Source of the DNA: Centroscyllium fabricii
Taxonomy: Eukaryota
NCBI GenBank assembly: GCA_051313645.2
Contig: JBNRSN020000009.1
Location: 36,084,001 to 36,148,000 of the forward strand
Direction of reading: 5' to 3'
DNA length: 64,000 nt
Of this stretch, positions 32,254 to 64,000 are shown piece after piece; positions within the stretch are counted from its first letter, which is position 1, and every line of letters begins with the position of its first letter. Both the position numbers and the translations under genes were made by a program. The notes beneath the pieces are model-generated. The model saw only the letters and a program-made list of their open reading frames with translations, had not been told where the DNA came from and ran no database searches.

Positions 32254-35151
32254 AGTGAGTGGCATTAGTGCTCGGTGAGTGATGTCAGTGCTCAGTAAGT
32301 GATGTCAGTGCTGGGTGAGTGACGTCAGTGCTCGGTGAGTGATGTCAGTGCTCGGTGAGTGACGTTAGTGCTCGGTGAGTGATGTTAGTGCTCGGTGAGT
32401 GACGTCAGTGCTCGGTGAGTGACGTCAGTGCTCGGTGAGTGATGTCAGTGCTGGGTGAGTGACGTCAGTGCTCGGTGAGTGATGTCAGTGCTCGGTGAGT
32501 GACGTCAGTGCTCGGTGAGTGATGTCAGTGCTCGATGAGTGATGTCAGTGCTCGGTGAGTGACGTCAGCGCTGGGTGAGTGACGTCAGTGCTCAGTGAGT
32601 GATGTCAGTGCTCGGTGAGTGACGTTAGTGCTCGGTGAGTGATATCAGTGCTCGGTGAGTGACGTCAGTGCTGGGTGAGTGATGTCAGTGCTCAGTGAGT
32701 GGCGTTAGTGCTCGGTGAGTGATGTCAGTGCTCGGTGAGTGACGTCAGTGCTGGGTGAATGATGTCAGTGCTCAGTGAGTGACGTCAGTGCTCGGTGAGT
32801 GACGTTAGTGCTCGGTGAGTGACGTCAGTGCTCGGTGAGTGATGTCAGTGCACGGTGAGTGATGTCAGTGCTCGGTGAGTGGCGTCAGTCCTTGGTGACT
32901 GATGTAATTTCTTGGTGACTGATGCCAGTGCTTGGTGACTGGTGTAATTCCTTGGTGAGTTATGTCAGTCCTTGGACATGGAACATATTCCCACTTTTGC
33001 ACCGAATGTTAGGCTCAAGTGCTACAAGGAGAGATACTGCTTGAGTTAATAATTTGCTACTGCAGTTCTTAATCAGCCAATATTGATCAATTATAGATTC
33101 TTATCTGGAGATTCTTGATATAACAATCAGTTACCACGATTAGTTGATCTCTTGACCCATAGTAAGTCACTATAAGCAATTTGTTCCTACCAGTGGTGGC
33201 ATTGGATTCTGATTTCTGTTGTCAAGCCAACAAGCTGCCCTATCACATAGCATAGTGGTTGGTAGGGTTTCACTTTGTAGTAGGTAAATGATACACCATA
33301 GCAAAACAATGTTTATGTGTACAATAGCATTGCCACTGTAATGTAAGGTAGCATTTCACACCCATAGCTATCCCACCTAGTTTATTTCTGATCGCAGTCA
33401 AGCCACCTGGGTTCTTAGGCTGAATTATCAAGCTCTAAGAACATAAGAACGTAGGAAATAAGAGCTGGAGTCGGCCATTTGGCCGTTCGAGCCCCTTCAA
33501 CAAGATCATGGCTGATCTTCTACCTCAACTCCACATTCCCGCACTATCTCCATATCCCTTAATTCCCTTAGTTCCCAAAAATGTATTGATCTCCGCCTTG
33601 AATACACTCAATGACTGAGCCTCCATAGCCCTCTGGGGTAGAGAATTCCAAAGATTCACCACCCTCTGAGAGAAGAAATTTCTCCTCATCTCAGTCCGAA
33701 ATGGCCGACCCCTTATTCGGAGACTGTGGCTGCATGTTCGAGATTCGCCAGCCACGGGAAACATTTTCTCGGCATTAACCTGGCCAAGCCCCTTAAGAAT
33801 CTTATATGTTTCAATTAGATCACCTCACATTCTTCTAAACTGTAGGGAATATTGGCCTAGTCTATTCAATCTCTCCTCATTGGACAATCCCCTCATCCCA
33901 GGAACCAGTCTAGTGAACCTTCGTTGCACTCCCTCTATGGCAAGTATATCCTTCCTTAGGTAAGGAGACCAGAATTGTACTCAGTACTCCAGGTGTGGCC
34001 TCACCAATGCCCTGTATAATTGTAGTAAAACTTCTTTACTCTTATACCCTAATCCCTTTATAACAAGAGCTAACATGTAGGGGGTGGCGTTTCGGAAGGT
34101 CAAGGTTAACTGCCTGATCACTGTGTCTTCGATGGTCAGCGGATTCCTGGGGTCAATTCACAGCTCGGCTTTGGTTCTGACCTGTGGCAAGCTGTTCGCC
34201 ACCAGGCAGCGGAGCCAGTGGACCAGCTGATCATGGGTCAGGGAATCCCAGTCGGGTGCCCCACTACAGGCACTCCGGTACACCGGCCACAACCTGTCCG
34301 CGAAAGCCTGCGGGATTTCCCCTGCGAGCTGCACTGTCCTCTCGACCTGGGAGAAGGGACTTGCCTCATTTATACCCATGGCCTCGAGGATGTCCTCCTT
34401 GAGCTCCGCTTACCCACGCTGTCCCTCCTTAGCCTGGTCAGGGAGGCACTGGTATAGCTTGCTGTCTAGGGAGAAGAGCAGCATTTTGGCCTTTTCGGCA
34501 TTATCAATGCCGGCCGCCTGCTCTACCTCCCTGAAGTGGACCAAGGGGTCTCCACTGGCTGAAGGCTTGGGTATGTGATTTACCATACCCCTAAGCAGCT
34601 GGGTGCCGTGGGGCGCTCTGAAATGGTTTTGGAGGGGACCCGTGTCCCTGTTAGCAGCGGGTGGCCCAAACCTTTGCTGCCGGACCGGGTACATCGGCCC
34701 CGATCCCCATCGCTCCTGCAGGGGTTGTTCCACCTCTGCCACTACACTTGGTTCCACCCTGCCTTGCTGCCAAACCTCACTGAAGCTGGGCACTGCGGGT
34801 GGTGGTCGGGAGTCCTCTTGCTCCTCAACCAGGTCGTCCTCTGGCACTATCACTGGGGCTTCTACTGATTTCCCCGGGTTCTCGGTGAAATCTATCTGGG
34901 CGGCGCTTGGTTTTATAAGGCACACCATGCCCTTTGCCTTTCTGAGAGCAAGGCTTAGCACCTCAATTTGTCTCTGACAGGGGCCATGATCTGCATCTTT
35001 GAACCCCTGTGTGCTCGCTATTTTATAAGCGGTCCGTAAACCCTTCACTTGCTCCTCCTGCACTGTCACTTGCCTCGCCAAACGAGTATTCTTCTCTGCA
35101 ATCTCAGCTCATTGTTCTTTGCCTCAGTTACCTGACACTGCAGGTACTTCA

Positions 35152-35731
35152 TGATGCCTAATCAATAACTTCAAAAGACTAGAAGTTGAGTAGTGAACTG
35201 TAGGCTTTTATTAACTAAGACATGAGCATACCCATGTGGTAAACCACTCTGTAATATATATATGTATATATCGCTGTAACCATCTGTAACCATGTTGTAC
35301 ATAGTTCACTGTGTATTGTTACCTGGACATGCCCATGCTGGCCCCGCCTGTGACCCCTCCTCCCCAGGACCAGGTACATAAGCGGCCGTCTCCCTTCCCC
35401 CAGCCATTCCTGGGGACGGTCGACTAGCTGGTGCATGTCCACCTTTAGCTAATAAAAGCCGATTGTTTCACCTCTTAATATCTCGTCTCCGAGGTCGTTA
35501 ATTCGGTAACAACCCATGCTAGTCGACCGATCCCAGAATGAATGGGGGAGGGAAAGCAGTTACCTTTATACCTGGGTCCGAGGAGGAGGAGCCGCAGGCG
35601 GGGTCAGCATGGGCATGCCCGGACAAGCTACACACAGGTGAACTATACACAGTGGAAAGGGCTATGTACAGTACAGCAGAGGTTAAACACAATGCAGGTG
35701 ATTATATACATATATACAGTGGTTTACCACA
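35152..35731 (-). mobile_element. Solo LTR (TGTGGTAAAC family) containing a second nested solo LTR
   Basis: Minus strand TGTGGTAAAC...GCATCA with TATAAA and AATAAA. TSD CTTCA/CTCCA (1 mismatch). Confidence 0.9.
35235..35511 (+). mobile_element. Solo LTR (TGTGGTAAAC family), 277 bp
   Basis: TG...CA, AATAAAAGCC, perfect 5-bp TSD ACCCA (35230-35234/35512-35516). Confidence 0.93.
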
Positions 35732-40230: not shown

Positions 40231-40480
40231 GTTAGTTACGTCCCACCTCCAAGTTGCCTCTGCTAACTCACACCTTTAGCTAGTGTGCCACTGCAGATTG
40301 AAGTATCAACACAGTTTCACTTGGCTGTAGTCATCATTTTAGCTGCTATCATGCCTGAGGAATGCCCAGGAAAGATTTGGCCCTTACCAGTGGATGAGTA
40401 AAACTTCTGGGTTGGAGCTGTGTTAATTGCTACTGATGGCGATAAGCGATGGCACACAGCAAAGTCCCAGCTTGTATCTC

Positions 40481-40776
40481 TGATGCACAATCAATTACTA
40501 CCAGTCGATGGTTCGATGCAACTGAGGCTTTTATTAACTTAGAACTGGACACAGGTCTGGCGATCTTCCGAGTCAAAGTGAAAGCACTCAGGTGTGCTGG
40601 CACTTTTATACCCTGTGGGCGGAGCCTGGAGGAAGCCAAGGAGCTGGGTCCTCCCAGATGAGTCCTCCCAGACAAGAAGGCAAGGAGTCACAATCACACA
40701 TACAGTACAGTAATTACAAGGAGGGGACACAAGGGGGAGACACTATACAATATATACAAGATGATGGTTTACCACA
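40481..40776 (-). mobile_element. Solo LTR (TGTGGTAAAC family), 296 bp
   Basis: Minus strand TGTGGTAAAC...TATAAAAG...AATAAAAGCC...GCATCA with perfect TSD ATCTC. Confidence 0.93.
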
Positions 40777-41938: not shown

Positions 41939-42792
41939 CGATGCGCTCCACTCTATCAGATCACTCCTTTGTACTGCCACCAACGCTACTCCTCACGAAA
42001 AACTGTTTGTCTTCCCTCGGAAGTCCGCTTCAGGGACCTCGCTACCATCATGGCTGACGCCCCCCAGGGCCCGTCCTACTCCGGAAGCATGTGAGGAGCC
42101 ATAAGTCGGACCCCCTGGTCGAAAGGGTCCATCTCCTCCACGCCAACCCCCAATACGCCTATGTTGCGTACCCTGACGGGCGGGAGGACACGGTCTCCAT
42201 TAGAGACCTAGCACCCTCAGGAGCCCCTGAGACCACCGCGACCCACCACCCCGCACCTTTATCCCCCACCGTTACCCACGATGCACCAGTGCCATGGCAT
42301 GTTCTCCCAGCCCCTGTGGACGGCACGCCAGGGCCCCAGGATCCATCGCCACACACCCGCCAACTCAACGCAGCTGAGGACAACACACCAGTGCTCCAAA
42401 CCGCCCAGAATTCGGCACCGGAACCTACACCACGGCCGGTACTATGACAGTCACAGCGGCGGACCAGACCACCCGAAAGACTTAATTTACAGTGAATGTT
42501 AATCCACCTCACCCCGCCGGACTCTTTTTTAAACAGGGGGTGAATGTGGTAAACTACCGTTATTGTATTATCGTTCACTCTTACCTGATGTATGTAACCT
42601 AGCTGGACATGCCCCTGCTGACTCTGCCTGTGGCTCCTCCCCCAGACCCAGGTATAAAGGTGACTGTTTCCCAACCCCCCTTCAGTCCCGGACCAGTCGA
42701 TCAGCAGAGGCATGCTCTCATTCTTTAGTGAATAAAAGCCTATTTGTTACTTGTATAACTTCTAGTCTTTTGGAGTTATTGATAGCGCATCA
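41939..42792 (+). mobile_element. 3' fragment of a Ty3/Gypsy element: integrase C-terminus, PPT and 3' LTR (42545-42792, TGTGGTAAAC family)
   Basis: Encodes DALHSIRSLLCTATNATPHE...VERVHLLHANPQYAYVAYPDGREDTVSIRDLAP. The purine tract aaacagggggtgaa precedes TGTGGTAAAC...GCATCA. Confidence 0.9.
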
Positions 42793-42902
42793 CACCGTTA
42801 ATCTGGGACCCGATGGTCCGGCAGCTTCAGTGGTCTGGCATGAATCTGTCTGGCCAGCCCACGTGATCCCAGGGACGCTCGCGATGCGCGGGCCTCTCCC
42901 CA

Positions 42903-44900: not shown

Positions 44901-47900
44901 TGTAGCGCCGGCAGGGCCTAGGAACCACACGTGAGCCAGAGCTAGAGAAAACACAGCTTTAATAACTAAACAAAACAAGAAAGAGAGTAAACCACTCGCA
45001 ACGAGCGTATTTAAACAGTCCCGCAGTTGGTGACATCATCGCGTCACCCGGATGAGCGGGGCTTTGCTCTGCGGAGTTCCCGTGGCGGATTCGATGTCTC
45101 AGTGGGCGTGCCGCCACACAGCTCCCCCCAGAATCCGTCCGGGAGGAATAGTTACAGAGTCTATGTGTGCCGTTGGGGTGGCCGGGTGATGCGGCCGGAC
45201 CGTGTTGTCTGTTGCTCCTGGTTCTGCGGTGGAGTGTGGGTGGGTTTTGTTGCGGGAGGGCGACCGCGTTGTGGTGGTTGTGCGGGGACCGTTGTCTCAC
45301 CCGCTATAACGTGCGCCGGCTTGAGCCGGTCTATTGTCACAGTGTCAGTCCTGTTGCCCATTTGTAATTCAAAAGCTTTAGCTCCCGCCCGAAGCACTCT
45401 GTAGGGGCCATCGTACGGTGGCTGTAGTGGAGATCGGTGTCCGTCGCGCCGGACGAACACAAATTTAGCTTTTTTAATGTCGTCCGGCACCCGAGCTGCC
45501 GGCTCTCCGTGCCGGGCCACTGGTAGTGGCTGGAAAGCTCGTGCCGGGTTGGCGAAGTCTTTTAAATACTGGTCGGCTGACCAGGGAGCGTTGGGCTCAG
45601 CCAGGAACTCGCCCGGCACCGTTAAAATTTGGCCGTAGACGAGCTCTGCTGCCGAGGCGTTTAGGTCTTCCTTGACTGCCGAGCGCAGCCCGAGGAGAAC
45701 CCATGGAAGGCGGTCGGTCCACGATGCGTCCTTTAGTGTGGCTCGTAGTGATGCCTTCATTGAGCGGTGGAACCGTTCGCATAGGCCGTTCGCCTGTGGG
45801 TGGTATGCGGTGGTTCGATGTAGTGTCACCCCAAGGTCGCGGGCGATGGCCGCCCATAATGCCGACGTAAACTGTGGTCCTCTGTCGGAGGTGATGTCTG
45901 TGGGCACGCCGAAGCGGGCGACCCAGGTGGCGATGAACGCCCTGGCCAAGTCCGTGGTGCCAGTGGCAGTGAGGGGAATTGCTTCTGGCCAGCGAGTGTT
46001 GCGGTCGACCATGGTCATTAGGTGCGTGTGGCCCCGGGATGGCGGTAGTGGCCCGACGAGATCGATATGGATGTGGTCAAAGCGTCTGGCCGGCACTTTA
46101 AAAGTTTCCAGTGGTGCCCTGATGTGCTTATGCACTTTGGAGCGCTGGCAGGCTATGCAGGAGCTGGCCCAGGCGCGGACGTCCTTGCGCAGGCCGCGCC
46201 ATACGAATCGGGCCGAGATTAATTTGATGGACGCGCAGGCGCCGGGGTGGGACAGGTCATGGAGGGTCCTAAATATGTGTCGCCTCCAAGCGTGGGGTAC
46301 GACTGGCCTGGGTTGCGGCAAGGATACGTCGCAGCAGACGACGGTGGCAGCGGGGCCGTGCGCGATATTGGCCAAGTGGAGGCCCGGAAGATTAGCTGCT
46401 GCGTTGAGCAGGTCGGGGTCGGCCAGCTGGTCCGCGGCCAGCTGGGCGTAATCGACCGCCATTTGGGCGGCGTTAATGGTGGGGCGTGAGAGGCAGTCAG
46501 CGACCACGTTGTCGCGGCCGGAAATGTGCTAGATGTCGGTTGTAAATTCCGACACGGCCGCGAGTTGGCGCTGCTGCCTGGCCGACCAGGGTTCGGTGAC
46601 CTTAGCCATCGCAAACGTGAGTGGCTTATGGTCGCTGAAGGCTGTGAAGTGGCGGCCCTCCAAGAGGAAACGAAAGTGTCGCACTGCCAGATGGAGAGCG
46701 AGTAGCTCCCTATCGAAGGCGCTGTATTTAACCTCTGGGGGCCGGAGTTACCGGCTGAAAAAGGCCAGGGGCTGCCACGAGTTGCCGATCCACTGCTCAA
46801 ATACGGCCCCGACCGCATGGTCGGAGGCGTCGGTGGTGAGGGCTACTCTGGCGTTGGGCCTAGGGTGGGCTAGGAGGGTGGCGTTTGCCAGGGCGGTTTT
46901 AGTTGCGGTGAAGGCGGTGGCGGCGTCGGCCGTCCACTCGACCGCAGCCTTGTTGGACTGCCCGCGGGTGGCCTGGTATAAGGGGGCCATGAGAGCGGCT
47001 GCTCCCGGGATAAAGCGGTTATAAAAATTAACCATGCCTAAGAATTCCTGCAGCCCTTTAATGGAGTGCGGGTGGGGGAATTCCTGTACCGCCTGCACCT
47101 TGGAGGGCAGGGGTATGGCGCCTGTTTGGGAAATGCGGTGGCCGAGGAAGTCAATAGTCTCGAGGTCGAATTTGCACTTGGTGGGGCTTAAGATAAGGCC
47201 GTGTTCGGTAAGGCGCTGGAACAGGGTCCTGAGGTGCAGGAGGTGTTCCTGGGGGGAGGTGCTGGCCACGAGGATGTCGTCTAAATAGACGAAAATGAAC
47301 TTCAAGTCCCGTAGGACTGAGTCCATGAGGCGCTGGAAGGCCTGGGCCGCGTTTTTAAGGCCGAAGGGCATCCTAAGGAACTCGAAGAGCCCAAAGGGGG
47401 TAATAACGGCCGCTTTAGGAATGTCCGTCGGGTGTACCGGCACCTGGTAGTAGCCACGCACCAGGTCGATCTTGGAAAAGATCGTACAGCCCGCTAATCT
47501 GGCGGAAAAATCCTGGATGTTGGGTACGGGGTACCTATCCGGGGTGGTGGCGTTGTTTAGGCGGCGGTAGTCGCCGCAGGGGCGCCAACCTCCGTCGGGC
47601 TTGGGGGCTATGTGGAGCGGGGAGGCCCAGGGGCTGTTGGAGCGGCGGATAATGCCGAGTTGCTCCATGGTGCGGAACTCGGTGCGCGCTATCTCCTGCT
47701 TGGCCGGGTCGAGCCTACGGGCGTGAGCATGGACGGGAGGGCCTGTGGTCGTTATAAAATGCTCCACCCCGTGTTTGGCCTGGCGGGCGGTGAACGTGGG
47801 GTTGGTTAGGGTGGGGAACTCTGCCAGGAGTGTGCCGTAGGCATCGGAGTCCCGGGAGCGGCATTGGGCTGCCGCGTGGGCCAGGAGTGCGGGCCCTGTG

Positions 47901-49323
47901 GAGCATGGGATGGTCGTCATAGTATTTATGTTGACCAAGCGGCGCCGGTTTACGTCGACCAGTAGGCCGTAGGCGCAGAGGAAATCTGCCCCGAGGAGGG
48001 GCGATGTGACCTGGGCCGTTACGAAATCCCAGGTGTACGCGTGGCTTGCAAGGGTAATTGTAAGCTTGCGGGTGCCGTACGTTTTTATACTGGAGCCGTT
48101 GGCCGCCGCTAGTGGCGGGCCCCGGGTGCCTTGTTTGGTTTCTGCAGGGGAGGCTGGCACGATGCTGTGCTGCACGCCTGTGTCGCAGAGGAACCTGAGG
48201 CATGTGCCGCTGTCTGTGGCAAAGAGCAGTGCTCCTGTGTGGCTTACAGACATGGTGGGGGCTGAGTTGGGCCGTGGCTTGAACGCGCATGGCTGGACGC
48301 AGCGGTGCGCTTTATGATCGAACCGCGTGTGGTAGTAGCACCAGCCGGTGCTAGAGGGACGCGGTTGCCTAGGTGGGCGCGGGGCCCTCGGTTCAGGCGT
48401 AAAGTTATGCCTGGGGGGTGATTGGCTGCGCTCTACCGATGCGGAGTTAGGGTCGCACGTGGTTGAGCGGGTGCCCTGCGCCTCCATGAGCCTGTCGGCT
48501 TCCTCTCCGAGCTCGTCACCGCTCCGCTGGCCAAGGGCCGCCAAGGCCGGTCTGATGGCGCGGGGCAGTTTAAGGAGGAAGACGGTGCGGAAGAAGGAGG
48601 CCGGGTTGGGTGTGAGCGCTTGCATCTGACCTAAGAGGTCCGATGGGTCTGCGTCCCCGAGTTCGGGGAGGTCGAGGAGCTGGCAGTCGCGCTCAAATTG
48701 AGAGGGGGTAAAAAAAATTATAAGCGCGGCCTTGAGTGATTCATACCTGCCTGCGGTGGGCACACGCTGTATTTTTGACCACATCCGATCGATCGTCGTC
48801 TGTGGTAGGGCTGAGAACACCAGGTCGTAGCGGTCGTCCCCCTGGATGCCATGTGTGCGGCAGCTGGTCTCGATGCACATAAACCAGGCCGCTGGCCGTT
48901 GCTCCCAGAACTCGGGTAGAGTTAGTCCACGTCCGACGTTCTGGCCAAGTCCTTGCGTTCATGGAGCTTGGTTCCTTGGGTTTACCATGTTTTCTTATTT
49001 AAAAATTTCTTTGGCTGGTGGTCCCAGATCCTGCGGCAGCTTTTCTTCTCTGGAAGTCGTACCAGTTCGGGGTCACCACTGTAGCGCCGGCAGGGCCTAG
49101 GAACCACACGTGAGCCAGAGCTAGAGAAAACACAGCTTTAATAACTAAACAAAACAAGAAAGAGAGTGAACCATTCGCAACGAGCGTATTTAAACAGTCC
49201 CGCGGTTGGTGACGCCATCGCGTCGGCCGACGTGGTGACGTCGTCGCGTCACCCGGATGAGCGGGGCTTTGCTCCGCGGAGTTCCCGTGGCGGATTCGAT
49301 GTCTCAGTGGGCGTGCCACCACA
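44901..49323 (-). mobile_element. Full-length Ty3/Gypsy LTR retrotransposon (CsRn1-like lineage)
   Basis: LTRs 44901-45118 and 49080-49323 (TGTAGCG...CCACA). PBS TGGTGACCCCGA (tRNA-Trp) at 49067-49078, PPT next to the left LTR, TSD AAGG/CAGG. Confidence 0.96.
45161..48988 (-). pseudogene. gag-pol: Single-frame gag-pol (Gag, protease, RT, RNase H, integrase) with three premature stops
   Basis: LPEFWEQRPAAWF; Cys/His CYYHTRF..KAHRC; LCDTG; RPCGDYRRLN, YLDD; TDASD; HDLSH..C..C, TSDRGPQF, GPY. The ORF pieces share one frame, with stops at ~48960, 46748 and ~46530. Confidence 0.95.
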
Positions 49324-53688: not shown

Positions 53689-53981
53689 TGTGGTAATCAT
53701 ATTACCAGTGTATATAGTTGGATTGTGGTTGTACTGCACCACATGACCCATGTGTATAGTTGCTTGGTGCATTGGATGTATTGTGTGTAGAACACGGTTG
53801 TAAGGCCAGGTTAGCCACACCTCTAACTCCTCCCCTCAGGTGGGAGGCTTATAGGTGAGGTCTGCCCTGCCCCCAGTCATTCTGTGCCTGATGTTCAACT
53901 GGAGACTAGCTCCATCTTTAAGTTAATAAAAGCCTGTAGTTAAGGTCACTACTCATCTTTTGCCTTATTGACGATACGTCA
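53689..53981 (+). mobile_element. Solo LTR (TGTGGTAA family), 293 bp, inside the Harbinger
   Basis: TG...CA, AATAAAAGCC, perfect TSD GGAGG. Confidence 0.92.
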
Positions 53982-54311
53982 GGAGGGCGCTAATGGGGGC
54001 GCAAAGCAACTGGCACCCGGGCGCGGCGAGTTTAGCGCCGCTTGGGAAATTGGCGAGGTATTTTGCGGCGACGCCAAACAATACTGCCACGATCTCCTGC
54101 GCACGTAGATCTTGTCATCATTCAAGAGTGCAACGCCTTTGGGGCGCCCCGGACTGGAAATTGAGTGGCACCCCCCTCCTTTCTGCCTCGTGCTACCAAT
54201 GACAGGTACAGTGGAACGCATCCCAAATGCTGTGGGGCTGGGGGGGGTTGCTATTTAAAGGGGGCCTCTTCCTGGATTTTATGTGGTAGCCATTTTTGCG
54301 CCACTCGTTCT

Positions 54312-57864: not shown

Positions 57865-60800
57865 TCAAAGATTAAGTCTATCAGGCTTTTTTACTTCACG
57901 TGTGGATCTTCTCAACACAGGTAAGTCTGATGTGTTTGTATGAGATTGTTCTGGTGGTGATTGACAAGATTCAGTTGCGGCATCATCATCGATTTTCTCT
58001 TGGAATGTTTCTTGTGTTTTCAGGAGGGAACGGCGGTTTCTCCTGAGAATTTGTCCTTCCTCAGTTCTAACAGTGTATGACCTTGGTCCCACTTCATCAA
58101 GAACTGTAGCGTTCCTATTCCATGCATTTGGATTTTCAACCCTGACAACATCATCCCTTGTCAATGGTTTCATAGCTTTTGATGACTTGCCATAGTATGA
58201 TTTCTGTTTCAGCTTTAACAGTTGATATCTCTGTCTCAGATCCTTGCTCTGCTTTTCTTTTGCATAGCAGGGTAGCATGGTGCATAACTTGCGATTCATT
58301 AGTAGTTCAGCAGGTGAAGAACCACATTCCAAAGGTGAGGCTCAGTAACTCAACAGAGCGAGATAAGGATCAGACTTGCTGTCTGTTGCTTTCTTCAGTA
58401 GCTGTTTGAGTATTTAAACACCTTTCTCTGCCTTACAATTCGACTGAGCATACAGAGAACTTGATGTGATATGCTGAAAGTCATAATGTGCTGCAAACTG
58501 TTGCCACTCCTTACAGTTGAAGCACGGACCATTGTCGCTAATGACAATCCTTGGAATCCCATGTCTGGCAAAGATGGATTTGACATGTATTATGACACTG
58601 CTTGCTGATGTGCTTGAGAGCAGCGCCATCTCAGGATAGTTGGAATAGTAGTCAATCACTATTAAATATTCTTTACCATTTAAATGAAACAGGTCCATAC
58701 CAACCTTTTGCCATGGTGCTGTTGGCAAGTCAGCTATTATCATTGGTTCCTTTGTTTGTTTGTTTTGGTGTTTCTGACATGTCTCACATTTGCCTATCAT
58801 GTTCTCAATGTTCTTATTTATGCCAGGCCAATAAACAGTGTCTCTTGCTCTCCTTATGCATTTTTCAATTCCGAGGTATCCCTCATGAATCCTTTTGAGC
58901 ATGTCTTGACGTTGAGCCTGTGGAATGACTATTCTGTTCTGTCTTAGTAATAGTCCATTTGTGACACTCAACTCTGACCTTATGTGATAGTATTTTGGGC
59001 AGGAACCTTTTGGCCAACCATGATGAATGTTCTCTATCACTGTTTGTAATATTGTGTCTTTTACTGTTTCTTCTGCTATTTGCTTTGATTTTGTGTCTGA
59101 CACAGGCAGTGCAGCAGTGACCATACTCACATGAACATCCACATCTTCTTCAGTAGAGCTCACATGACTCACTGTGGGTGCTCGGGATAGTGCATCTGCT
59201 AACACTATGTGTTTGCCTGGTGTGTAGATCAGTTCAAAGTCATATCTTTGCAGTTTCATCATGAGTCGTTGAATCCTTGGAGACATCTCATTCAAGATTT
59301 TCTTTATGATGGCAACCAGTGGGTGGTGGTCTGTCTCAACTGTGAAGGTAGGAAGTTCATATATGTAGCCATGGAACTTTTCTAGTCTAACTACCAAGGT
59401 TAGACATTCCTTTTCAATCTGGGCATATCGACACTCAGATTCAGTCATAGACCTGGAGGCACAGGCAACAGGCTTCCAGTTGTCACCCTCTGCTTGTAGC
59501 AAGACCTTTCCTAAGCCATCTTTTGATGCATCCATTGATACTTTGATTCTCTTTGTTGGGTCAAAGAAAGAGAGTACAGGTGTGGTTGTCAGCGCTGTTT
59601 TGAGGTTCATCCACTCTTGTTCATGTTTTTCTGTCCATGCAAACTCATTTGTCTTGTGTAGCAGGTCTCGCAGACAGGCTGTCTTGGTTGACAAGTTAGG
59701 AATGAACTTTCCAATGAAGTTTATCATCCCCATGATGTGTAGTACTCCTTTTTTGTCACTGGGTCAGGGCATGTTGAGTATGGCGTTTACTTTTTCCATA
59801 TCTGGTTCTATTCCTTTACCAGATAGATTATCTCCTAGGAAAGTGACTTCCTGGACGCCAAACTGACACTTGGCTTTGTTGAGCTTCAGTCCATTCCGGC
59901 ATATGCTCTGTAGCACTTTAGTCAGTCTCTCATTGTGTTCTTTCAGTGTGGAGCCCCAGATGATGATGTCATCAACATAGACCCGAACTCCTTCCAAACC
60001 TTCAATTATGTGTTCCATTGCTCTATGGAAGATTTCAGATGCAGATATTACCCCGAAAGGCATTCTTAGGAAACAATACCTGCCGAATTGTGTGTTGAAG
60101 GTACAGTATTTGGTGCTCTCTTCATCTAGTTTTAGTTGCCAAAATCCTTGTGAGACATCGAGCTTTGTGAAGTATCTTGCACCTGACATTTCACTGGTGA
60201 TTTCTTCTTGCTTGGGAATCTGGTAGTGTTCACATTTTATGTTTGCATTTAAGTCCTTTGGATCCATGCAAATTCTTAGATCATTGTTCTTTTTCTTTAC
60301 ATATACCATGGAGTGGACCCAATCTGTTGGCTCTTCGACTTTCCTGATGACTCCTAGTGTGGTCATTCTGTCCAGTTCTTTCTTGAGCCGGTCACGCAGG
60401 GGCGCTGGAACTCTCTGTGGAGCATGTACCACTGGTTGAGCATCCTCTATTAGCTGGATCTTGTATGTAAATGGTAGAACTCCAAATCCTTTGAACACAT
60501 CCTGGAAATTACTCACTACAGAATCCACTGAGTCATCTGGTCTGCTTATGGCACAGTTTATACGGTAGACTCTCTTGACCAGTTCTAAGTCCTCACAAGC
60601 TTTGTCACCTAATAGTGAATCAAGTCCTTCAGCCACAACAGAAAACATGAGATGATGCACTTTGTCTTTGACTGTGACTTTAAGTCTGCATACACCTAAG
60701 CTATCTATTTTCTGTCCAGTATAATTCTTCAGCAGTACTGACTTTTTCAGTATTTTGGCCTTTTCCTTCATATTTTTGATGTCACTCATACTGATTAAGT

Positions 60801-61728
60801 TTGCTTTTGCCCCAGTATCTAGTTTCAATGTAACTAATGCTCCATTTACCTGCAGTGGGATCATCCATTTGTCCTCTTTTACTGCATTTATTTTATGTTC
60901 AGCATTGTCCATTTCTGAGGGCTGCACATTTTCAGTATTCTTTTCTGTATTGTCACATGACTCCATTCTTACAAAAAATGTCTCACTTAAATCAGTGTCC
61001 TCACTCACATTGACTTGTTGCCCTTTCTTTGTTTTTACTTTTGAGAAGCATTGTTTGGCAAAGTGATTCTTTCCATTACATTTTGTGCACATTTCCCCAA
61101 ATGCTGAACATTTTCTTGGCTCATGCTTATAACCACATCTTTTACAATTAAAAGTTCCATCTTCCATTTGCTTTGCATTCCAGTTCTGTATTTTTTTCTT
61201 CTCTTTGTAGGACACTGCACTGATAGCACTGTCATTCACTAACGTTGAACCATTATTTATTCCACTGAAAGTGATTGTGTGTTGTTGAGCTAGCTCACTG
61301 GCTTGGCATATTTTCAACGCATTTTCCAATGTTAGTTCGGTTTCTCGCAACAGACGATCCCTGACCTTTGTATCTCCAATACCAAACACAATCTGGTCAC
61401 GAATCATTGATGATTTCAGCTCAGAGAAATTACAAGTCTGTGCTTTCAGTTTCAGATCGGTCACAAAGCTATCAAAAGTCTCATTTTGCTTCTGAGTCCT
61501 TGAACGGAACACATACCTCTCATAGGTCACGTTCTTTTTGGGAGAACAATGTGCATCAAATGTCTTCAGCACCTCATCTATTTTGCCTTTGTCCTCCTCT
61601 TGAGTAAATGTAAACATATTAAATAGCTCTATTGCCTGCGGGCCTGCAATCGTCAGCAGCAATGCTATTTTTCATGCACCTGGCTTCGTGTCTAATCCTA
61701 TGGCTGCAATGTATATCAGAGATTCCAT
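57865..61728 (-). pseudogene. gag-pol: gag-pol polyprotein with stops
   Basis: YERYVFRSRTQ, MIRDQIVFG, two zinc knuckles (CKRC..HEPRKC, CTKC..KNHFAKQC), KLDTGA, YVDD, DASKDG, ADALSR, IDYYS, SDNGP. Stops at ~61674, 59764, 58414 and others. Confidence 0.93.
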
Positions 61729-62672: not shown

Positions 62673-62935
62673 ATCCATGTTTTAACAACAAGTCCAGTGC
62701 CTTAAACAAGAGAAGCACTCTATAGCTTTAGTTCACTATTTACATGCAACTCAATCTAGTGGACAATTCTAGAATAACATGTTTTTTATATATCACTGCA
62801 GGCAGCAGAAGGCACGGCCACCGATGGTGGGGCAATTAAAACCAGGGATGCGCAAGTTGCCAGAATTGGGAGACTGCATAGATCTCAAAGGCTTTTAGGG
62901 ATGGAGGAGGTTACAGAACTAGGGTGGGGCGAGGT

Positions 62936-64000
62936 TGTGGTAATACAGAACAGCTTCTATCTGCTTACATCACTTCCGGGGACCTATGAACTTTTGTATG
63001 ATGTCACTTCCTGTAACTAGCCCAGTATAAATACTGGGCTACTCACTATGATTTAGTAAGAGGCATAGTGAAGACCTCTTTTGTATGTAGCACCTTTATA
63101 AGTTGATTAAAGCTTACCTTAAGTTCCTATCGTGTAAGTTTCATTCTTACAACAATTTAATCAACTTTGCAAAACCTCTCACTCAACTCGAACTTTTGGA
63201 CAAAACTCGGAGCTGAGGATCCAGGGAAGCCACCAGCATGGAGAACCTCCTTAGACCGACTCGTCTCGATTTGGACCCAAACACCTCAGCAGCTGATAAA
63301 GTCTGGAAACACTGGTATCACGCTTTTGAAAATTTTCTTGTATATTGTGAAGCTGATGATGACATGAAGCTCAAGTTACTAATCAACTATGTCACCCCAA
63401 GGGTATATGAATGTGTGGATCATTGGACTAATTTTGATGAGGCAATTCGGACACTTCAGAGACTATATACTAAGACACCTAATGAGATCTATGCTAGACA
63501 TCTACTAGCTACAGCCCGACAAGGGCCAGAGGTATCAATTGATAAATTCCTTCATGAGCTTCGCAGGCTTAGCATGAATTGTAACTTTCAGGCGGCTTCA
63601 GCTGAGCTGTACTGTGAAGAGATGATTCGTGATGCCTTCATCTGCGGGCTTGCCTCCCCATTTATTCGCCAGCGTCTACTCGAAAGTAAGACACTGGAAC
63701 TACAAAAAGCTTATGACTTGGCTTGTTCTCTGGATTTGGCAAAAAGAAATGCAGACCTTTATGAAGTACCTAGACCTCGAACTGCTGCTTTAACCACAAC
63801 CAGACAATTTAAGCGGCCACAGGTGAACTCTATTAGGGAGGACTTTTATTCTGATGATCAATCTGAGGACTTCACTGATGAAGAAGATAATGACCCCACT
63901 CTGGCAGCCTCTTGGCGATCTAAGAAATGCTTTTTTTGTGGTGATGAGTTTCATCCTAGGAAATTCTGCCCTGCTCGCAATGCGATTTGCAGTCATTGTG
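62936..64000 (+). mobile_element. 5' end of a Ty3/Gypsy element (LTR 62936-63154, TGTGGTAA start), running off the window
   Basis: TG...CA LTR with TATAAATA (~63027) and ATTAAA (63106), followed by an open gag. Confidence 0.88.
63238..64000 (+). CDS. gag: Gag, open to the window end (absent from the ORF track because there is no stop)
   Basis: MENLLRPTRLDLDP..WKHWYHAFENFL..NEIYARHLLATARQ..MIRDAFICGL..IRQRLLE..CFFCGDEFHPRKFCPARNAICSHC zinc knuckles. Confidence 0.9.
   Translation, partial: MENLLRPTRLDLDPNTSAADKVWKHWYHAFENFLVYCEADDDMKLKLLINYVTPRVYECVDHWTNFDEAIRTLQRLYTKTPNEIYARHLLATARQGPEVSIDKFLHELRRLSMNCNFQAASAELYCEEMIRDAFICGLASPFIRQRLLESKTLELQKAYDLACSLDLAKRNADLYEVPRPRTAALTTTRQFKRPQVNSIREDFYSDDQSEDFTDEEDNDPTLAASWRSKKCFFCGDEFHPRKFCPARNAICSHC

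Follow-up and report, generated by a model that had tools for sequence, protein, structure and literature searches.

A covarying LTR fold-back points to tRNA-independent self-priming in an animal Gypsy clade outside the chromoviruses

Priming by a tRNA is the rule for LTR elements, and some Gypsy families are called self-primed in Repbase entries, where prior notice of the feature described here is possible. In the literature searched, whose scope left aside Repbase, GyDB and most subscription papers, no published case of self-priming was found for an animal Gypsy clade outside the chromoviruses. The closest described systems are Tf1 and the sushi group, in which, according to the accessible parts of the reports, a cut in the RNA yields the primer and the bases directly behind the LTR can pair with part of it (PMC7175516, PMC4600332); in Tf1 the cut is made by RNase H between bases 11 and 12 (PMC7175516). 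The Gypsy element considered here resembles Tf1 and Tf2 of Schizosaccharomyces pombe, Tj1 and the Tf1/sushi chromoviruses in having no tRNA site and in carrying LTR-complementary bases directly behind the LTR. It differs from Tf1 in that the complementary LTR stretch (the arm) lies, in this element and its relatives with a TATAAA, 53-98 nt after the TATA box and 37-67 nt before the LTR end, and closes in a poly(A)-like hexamer; it differs from the Tf1/sushi chromoviruses in lacking a chromodomain or SH3_Tf2-1 match and in having an RT on a separate branch. An LTR-complementary site has also been predicted from sequence for the plant elements Tcn1 (gypsy) and TAR/Houba/Osr-1 (copia), the available part of that report giving no cut-site evidence for any of them (PMC6317226); these predictions indicate that self-priming recurs outside Tf1. 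Unlike the clade described below, they come from plant hosts, Tcn1 being a chromovirus and TAR a copia element. Skipper and the bivalve TRIMs, as far as the accessible portions of the reports go, have neither a tRNA site nor a clear primer, and hairpin priming has been proposed, in the part of the source at hand, to have preceded tRNA priming (PMC3601003).

The window analysed is a stretch of 64,000 nucleotides from Centroscyllium fabricii (assembly GCA_051313645.2, contig JBNRSN020000009.1, positions 36,084,001 to 36,148,000), and the focal element begins close to its right-hand end (Table 1). When the sequence beyond the window is included, the 3' LTR is found 4.3 kb downstream (219 bp, 100% identical), together with a purine tract and the second copy of the GAGGT duplication. 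Protease, RT, RNase H and integrase are all recognised by Pfam in the one 1327-aa ORF; the TG..CA LTRs, target-site duplication, purine tract and PR-RT-RH-IN order are those of a Ty3/gypsy element. In the 7.2-Gb genome all 150 Gag matches that were scored show 98-100% identity, and pattern searches recovered at least 1,767 exact focal LTR-site junctions and 2,729 exact arm sites; among the first 100 LTR sites listed, at least 72 are in pairs. The focal element is a young, high-copy, single-ORF Gypsy element. Its TATA box is situated inside a 24-bp imperfect palindrome (63018-63041). Elsewhere in the window, positions 1 to about 33000 are occupied by a satellite array with a 20-bp period, copies about 85% alike and a strong GC skew. 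Two Gypsy elements with TGG sites are present on the minus strand at 45161-48958 and 58414-61671, the first with a DUF7041 Gag; the first-pass annotation had credited the other three LTR elements of the window with Trp, Leu or Arg primer-binding sites, and we see TGG-initiated sites in these two.

Table 1. Features of the focal element within the window (position 1 is the first base of the window)
Feature	Position	Strand	Basis
Target-site duplication GAGGT, left copy, 5 bp	62931..62935	+	identical 5-mer directly 3' of 3' LTR
LTR, 5' copy, 219 bp, TG...CA	62936..63154	+	100% identical to L001:4440-4658
TATA box TATAAATA, presumed function	63026..63033	+	sequence; sister families keep the motif
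Initiator-like TTAGT, predicted start about 63055 (TATA+29)	63053..63057	+	sequence and general TATA-to-start rule
LTR arm AAGTTGATTAAA, putative 3' end of self-primer	63100..63111	+	sequence, covariation; misfired insertions join it to the start of the cDNA
Poly(A)-like hexamer ATTAAA, closing the arm	63106-63111	+	sequence
Putative RNA cut / template end, between 63110 and 63111 or between 63111 and 63112	63110..63112	+	33/34 snap-backs
Predicted hairpin GCUUA/UAAGU, begins at first base past arm	63112..63124	+	folding
Spacer A, one base	63155..63155	+	A in 114/118 paired junctions
Primer-binding position TTTAATCAACTT, no TGG, complementary to LTR arm	63156..63167	+	sequence, covariation
Single 1327-aa Gag-PR-RT-RH-IN ORF, start; continues beyond window	63238..64000	+	ORF, Pfam

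The starting observation of the first-pass annotation, an exact fold-back behind the LTR with no TGG, agrees with the sequence: after the terminal CA (63154) and the spacer A, TTTAATCAACTT (63156-63167) is the exact reverse complement of AAGTTGATTAAA (63100-63111), and no TGG-initiated tRNA-type site is present at this junction. Among 20,000 shuffled LTRs, only one gave a 12-mer complement to the 15 bases that follow the LTR. The segment 63090-63175 folds with a z-score of -3.88 (none of 200 shuffles being equally stable), and the helix is retained in the longer segment 63055-63240, but there the overall stability is ordinary (z 0.20). The 12 bp are perfect in 26 of 30 focal copies, and the paired length is restricted to 11-18 bp. 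A second hairpin begins directly behind the arm; across 21 families the first base past the arm is paired at p>0.5 in 17 (mean 0.65 vs 0.29-0.31 in shuffled sequences), and this hairpin is missing in the other four.

That the pairing should recur and covary in other family members, as the first-pass annotation anticipated, is borne out. The scored set comprises 143 gag starts of the clade with 200 nt upstream, of which 111 are from the same genome (29 of them near-identical focal copies) and 32 from metagenome contigs; sister families were fetched with two foreign Gag queries, and the metagenome stretches are the best 80 of 421 by alignment. At least 11 of 12 Watson-Crick pairs are formed in 118 of the 143 starts (93/111 in the genome itself, 25/32 in the metagenome contigs), compared with 2 of 710 shuffles, and the set holds 26 distinct perfect arm/site pairs. 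Among the 25 junctions below 11/12, several show clear damage or truncation. In 104 of the 118 paired junctions the bases next to the arm are GCCT, GCTT, GCCA or ACCT. The sister LTRs with GTGAATAAAA, GCTAATAAAA and GTTAATAAAA had been predicted to precede matching complements, and they are indeed followed by TTTTATTCAC, TTTTATTAGC and TTTTATTAAC. A 25-mer of the sister LTR at 42.7 kb has 3,245 exact matches in the genome; among the first 30, eight are 5' junctions opening with the complement, one with a compensated variant. LTRs with arms ending in AATAAAAGCC occur in the window at about 35250-35515, 42540-42795 and 53730-53985 on the plus strand and at about 35145-35260 and 40470-40730 on the minus strand; the three plus-strand LTRs match families whose 5' junctions fold back likewise.

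In a comparison of 21 families selected for possessing the helix, a family's own arm and site form on average 11.9 of 12 pairs vs 7.7 for cross-family combinations. Positions 4-12 in these helix-selected families each show two to four types of Watson-Crick pair, and even the near-invariant AAA/TTT has one compensated change. Since CpG decay is able to mimic a pairing change at one position, we rely on the remaining positions. L091, which is 98-99% identical to its siblings, carries one arm change in both LTRs together with the matching site change, and in L253, from another family, an arm change is likewise matched in the site. The focal copies contain three single mismatches, all uncompensated, which fits changes arising after insertion. 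Because the site changes with the arm in so many forms, a single tRNA could not follow it. The clade is widespread: at least 120 protein relatives align at 45-64% identity, and the hosts named among them are crustaceans and cnidarians as well as a tunicate, a fluke and a nematode; our scans found no relatives in viral contigs.

In this genome, the position of the arm relative to the presumed promoter would set the clade apart from Tf1. The first-pass annotation placed the TATA box about 70 nt before the partner sequence and judged that sequence not to be obviously at the cap site; TATAAATA starts at 63026, 74 nt upstream of the arm, and the arm is far from the predicted cap site (about 63055), in keeping with both statements. 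TATAAA stands 53-98 nt before the arm in 64 of the 93 own-genome paired junctions, none being seen in the remaining 29, and TATAAATA never occurs at about 30 nt before the arm in the own-genome families. No TATAAA was found upstream of the arm in the 25 paired metagenome junctions, so that support for a long-leader geometry is confined to this genome. For comparison, 12 chromovirus loci (PF24626) of the same genome were taken, seven of which have an LTR pair; in five of these seven the arm lies 29-30 nt after a TATA-like box. The contrast between 53-98 nt and 29-30 nt suggests that in this genome the arm of the focal clade is probably internal to the transcript and that the primer would be a longer capped leader; the TATA spacing would speak against a primer consisting of the 5'-terminal 11 nt or so of the transcript. 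The sushi-like chromoviruses L221, L222, L226, L227 and L228 have a fold-back of their own, in the classic Tf1 geometry. In L100, L120, L135 and L140 there is no TATAAA, and a pyrimidine tract with CAG, resembling a splice acceptor, stands shortly before the arm; spliced-leader addition is a possibility in these LTRs.

The first-pass annotation held that the family does not look like a chromovirus, and this is upheld. No chromodomain or SH3_Tf2-1 was found in the focal ORF (Pfam, E<=0.1), whereas a chromodomain-like motif is present in the PF24626 loci of this genome, to which the focal RT is only 27-32% identical. An RT tree of 43 rows (midpoint-rooted, with a long-branch warning and without Tf1, sushi or other named reference rows) splits a 35-row clade containing the query at 99/99 from six chromovirus rows and two TGG-site elements; L102, L112, L148 and L163, with short RT matches, were left out. 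The RT motif of the focal ORF is YLDN, and YxDN in place of YxDD is found in most rows of the clade (L001:438-4421 and relatives). The closest PDB match is Ty3 RT, which is uninformative on the clade, and RT/RH is about 25% identical to that of a Mag-like, TGG-primed element in the window. The layout of the Gag zinc knuckles resembles that of the Mag lineage. Seven of the eight positions of AYANAACA, the 3' motif of Mag C as given in the accessible part of its description, are matched by the end of the focal LTR (PMC3601003); Mag C membership, our first guess, is neither upheld nor excluded by these data. The clade could already have a name, whether as Cigr-1, among the MolGy clades or as a relative of Mag. 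It shares short LTRs, a single ORF and a wide spread among aquatic animals with those animal Gypsy clades that have been named (Mag A/B/C, Cigr-1, MolGy1-16 and the LGF families); the available parts of the reports on such clades do not discuss priming (PMC6238403, PMC8220671).

Further information on the putative primer junction comes from misfired insertions. The search pattern was an LTR end with its site, followed by more LTR complement from the region before the arm, and it left the switch point free. It has 46 matches, 9 of them in the focal family and the others in sister families (30 and 7), and none in reversed controls. By-eye sorting of the 46 gave 34 snap-backs, eight loci with LTR and site followed by an inverted LTR, and four normal junctions. 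In a snap-back, the LTR is first present in reverse complement, running from the LTR end as far as the base directly past the arm; a jump follows, after which the start of that strand, the spacer, the arm and the remaining LTR are copied. In 33 of the 34 the switch point lies 0-2 nt from the arm edge (between 63111 and 63112, or the sister equivalent). At most one arm base could have been copied before the switch in 14 cases and at most two in 19, while one case allows ten; L180 can be read as extending 10 nt into the arm. All 33 are compatible with a template end 0-1 base inside the arm, with junctions blurred by the 3-6 nt microhomologies that snap-backs use. The landing sites fall at seven different distances, and, as snap-backs sharing a junction are perhaps not independent, seven landing classes are the cautious count. 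Perfect 5-bp target-site duplications flank 18 of the 34 by automatic parsing. No internal sequence of the family was found within 1.5 kb of the six focal snap-backs, even though LTR sites are mostly paired in the count given above; this counts against the reading that follows.

In these genomic products the cDNA stops at the arm edge and is joined to the arm. The layout suggests a first cDNA whose template ended at the arm edge and which then folded back and copied through its own start into the attached arm, and this pattern is what a cut at AAA/GC with the arm as primer predicts. The loci with LTR, site and inverted LTR (L165, L168, L171, L179, L185, L195, L199 and L207; in L168 and L171 the inverted part continues past the purine tract into the internal region) probably derive from plus-strand strong-stop DNA that had annealed to the arm by its end. 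Together with the covariation and the RT tree, the misfired insertions back the earlier suggestion of tRNA-independent priming outside the Tf1/sushi group.

Other explanations differ in where the RNA begins and in what serves as primer. Self-priming might proceed from a transcript that starts at the arm, with a 12-15-mer primer as in Tf1 and the upstream TATA serving another start. Tf1 (PMC7175516, in the accessible part) and the chromoviruses of this genome have such a geometry, and the restriction of the pairing to 11-18 bp and the metagenome LTRs without upstream TATAAA would suit it; the retention of TATAAATA 53-98 nt upstream in own-genome families, never at about 30 nt, and the initiator-like TTAGT at TATA+29 of the focal LTR speak against it, and we consider it unlikely. 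A template end at AAA/GC would equally be expected if the RNA began just past the arm and the primer were the arm of the 3' LTR, on the same or a second RNA, freed at AAA/GC so that the RNA primes from its own 3' end. The fold-back products that run unbroken to LTR base 1, and those in L168 and L171 that pass the purine tract, lend this some weight. However, no promoter motif is present 30 nt before the site, the conserved TATA is left without a role, and a cut in the 3' arm would remove the repeat needed for the first strand transfer, which makes this arrangement quite improbable in our view.

The helix might instead merely mask the poly(A) signal of the 5' LTR, the primer being an unrecognised tRNA fragment or another host RNA. 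Perfect own-genome arms contain AATAAA or ATTAAA, and our tRNA screen was limited to 33 distinct Cys and Lys genes, the only isotypes recovered, to which the focal site matches over 5 nt at most. Against this stand the arms TAGCTAGTTAAA, AAGCTGTTAAAA, GAGTCGTTTAAA and TTGTTTGTTAAA, which have no canonical hexamer, the 26 site sequences that always track the LTR, and the snap-backs, which copy LTR sequence rather than foreign RNA and end at the arm edge; a role in masking alone is very unlikely. As several metagenome arms are without AATAAA or ATTAAA, masking of the 5' LTR signal, which the first-pass annotation had raised, would be at most a side effect. Its related statement that the hairpin can form only at the 5' LTR needs qualifying: since the RNA carries the arm in its 3' LTR too, pairing is not strictly limited to the 5' LTR. 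The fold-back insertions could also be dismissed as DNA-level template switching at an inverted repeat, uninformative on priming: microhomologies occur at most junctions, and the eight products with LTR, site and inverted LTR could come from a DNA hairpin. Yet the 34 snap-backs require two switches each and recur across subfamilies with differing landing sites, many have a target-site duplication of their own, and the covariation would be left unexplained, so that we give this explanation hardly any credence.

We return to self-priming from the LTR arm and regard it as likely that the element primes without a tRNA, cleaving its own RNA at the arm's 3' edge and extending the piece upstream of the cut. 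The feature is real and clade-wide; the sequence evidence for self-priming is strong and would place the cut site to about one base. In the proposed mechanism the leader folds on itself, bringing the 12 bases behind the 5' LTR into a helix with the LTR stretch that closes in the poly(A)-like AAA. If transcription begins, as predicted, at about TATA+29, the capped leader serving as primer would measure about 55-60 nt, with pairing confined to its last 12-18 nt; this long-leader variant is plausible. The RNA would be cut at AAA/GC, a place that the hairpin starting from the first base past the cut may mark by stacking on the helix; the analogy of Tf1 suggests that the cut is probably made by the RNase H of the element itself, a domain present in the ORF. 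Extension of the arm by RT, over the spacer and about 43 nt of LTR, would then give the first cDNA, which may jump to the 3' LTR by means of the short segment that separates the poly(A) site from the cut. The binding site would be rewritten whenever the plus strand copied the primer. Such rewriting would explain the fast covariation, since a single mutation could turn into a compensated pair within two cycles.

The focal clade thus appears to work like Tf1 while standing outside Tf1/sushi, as a variant of Tf1-type self-priming. Evenly balanced, to our mind, is the full proposition that a pan-animal Gypsy clade acquired self-priming independently of chromoviruses and carries it out differently, with an internal cut at a conserved AAA/GC helix junction freeing a long capped leader, the helix hiding the 5' poly(A) signal, the primer rewriting its site each cycle and the snap-backs recording the cut to within one base. 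With snap-back insertions, primer junctions can be mapped from genome sequence by itself. Self-priming is established for Tf1, with predictions extending to chromoviruses and to some copia lineages of plants; if the present reading is true, a large non-chromovirus animal clade would represent a further origin of self-priming or a relic of it, which bears on the proposal, in the portion of the source available, that hairpins primed before tRNAs did (PMC3601003). Such elements would, we suggest, escape control by tRNA fragments, and element finders that require a tRNA site would miss or misfile them.
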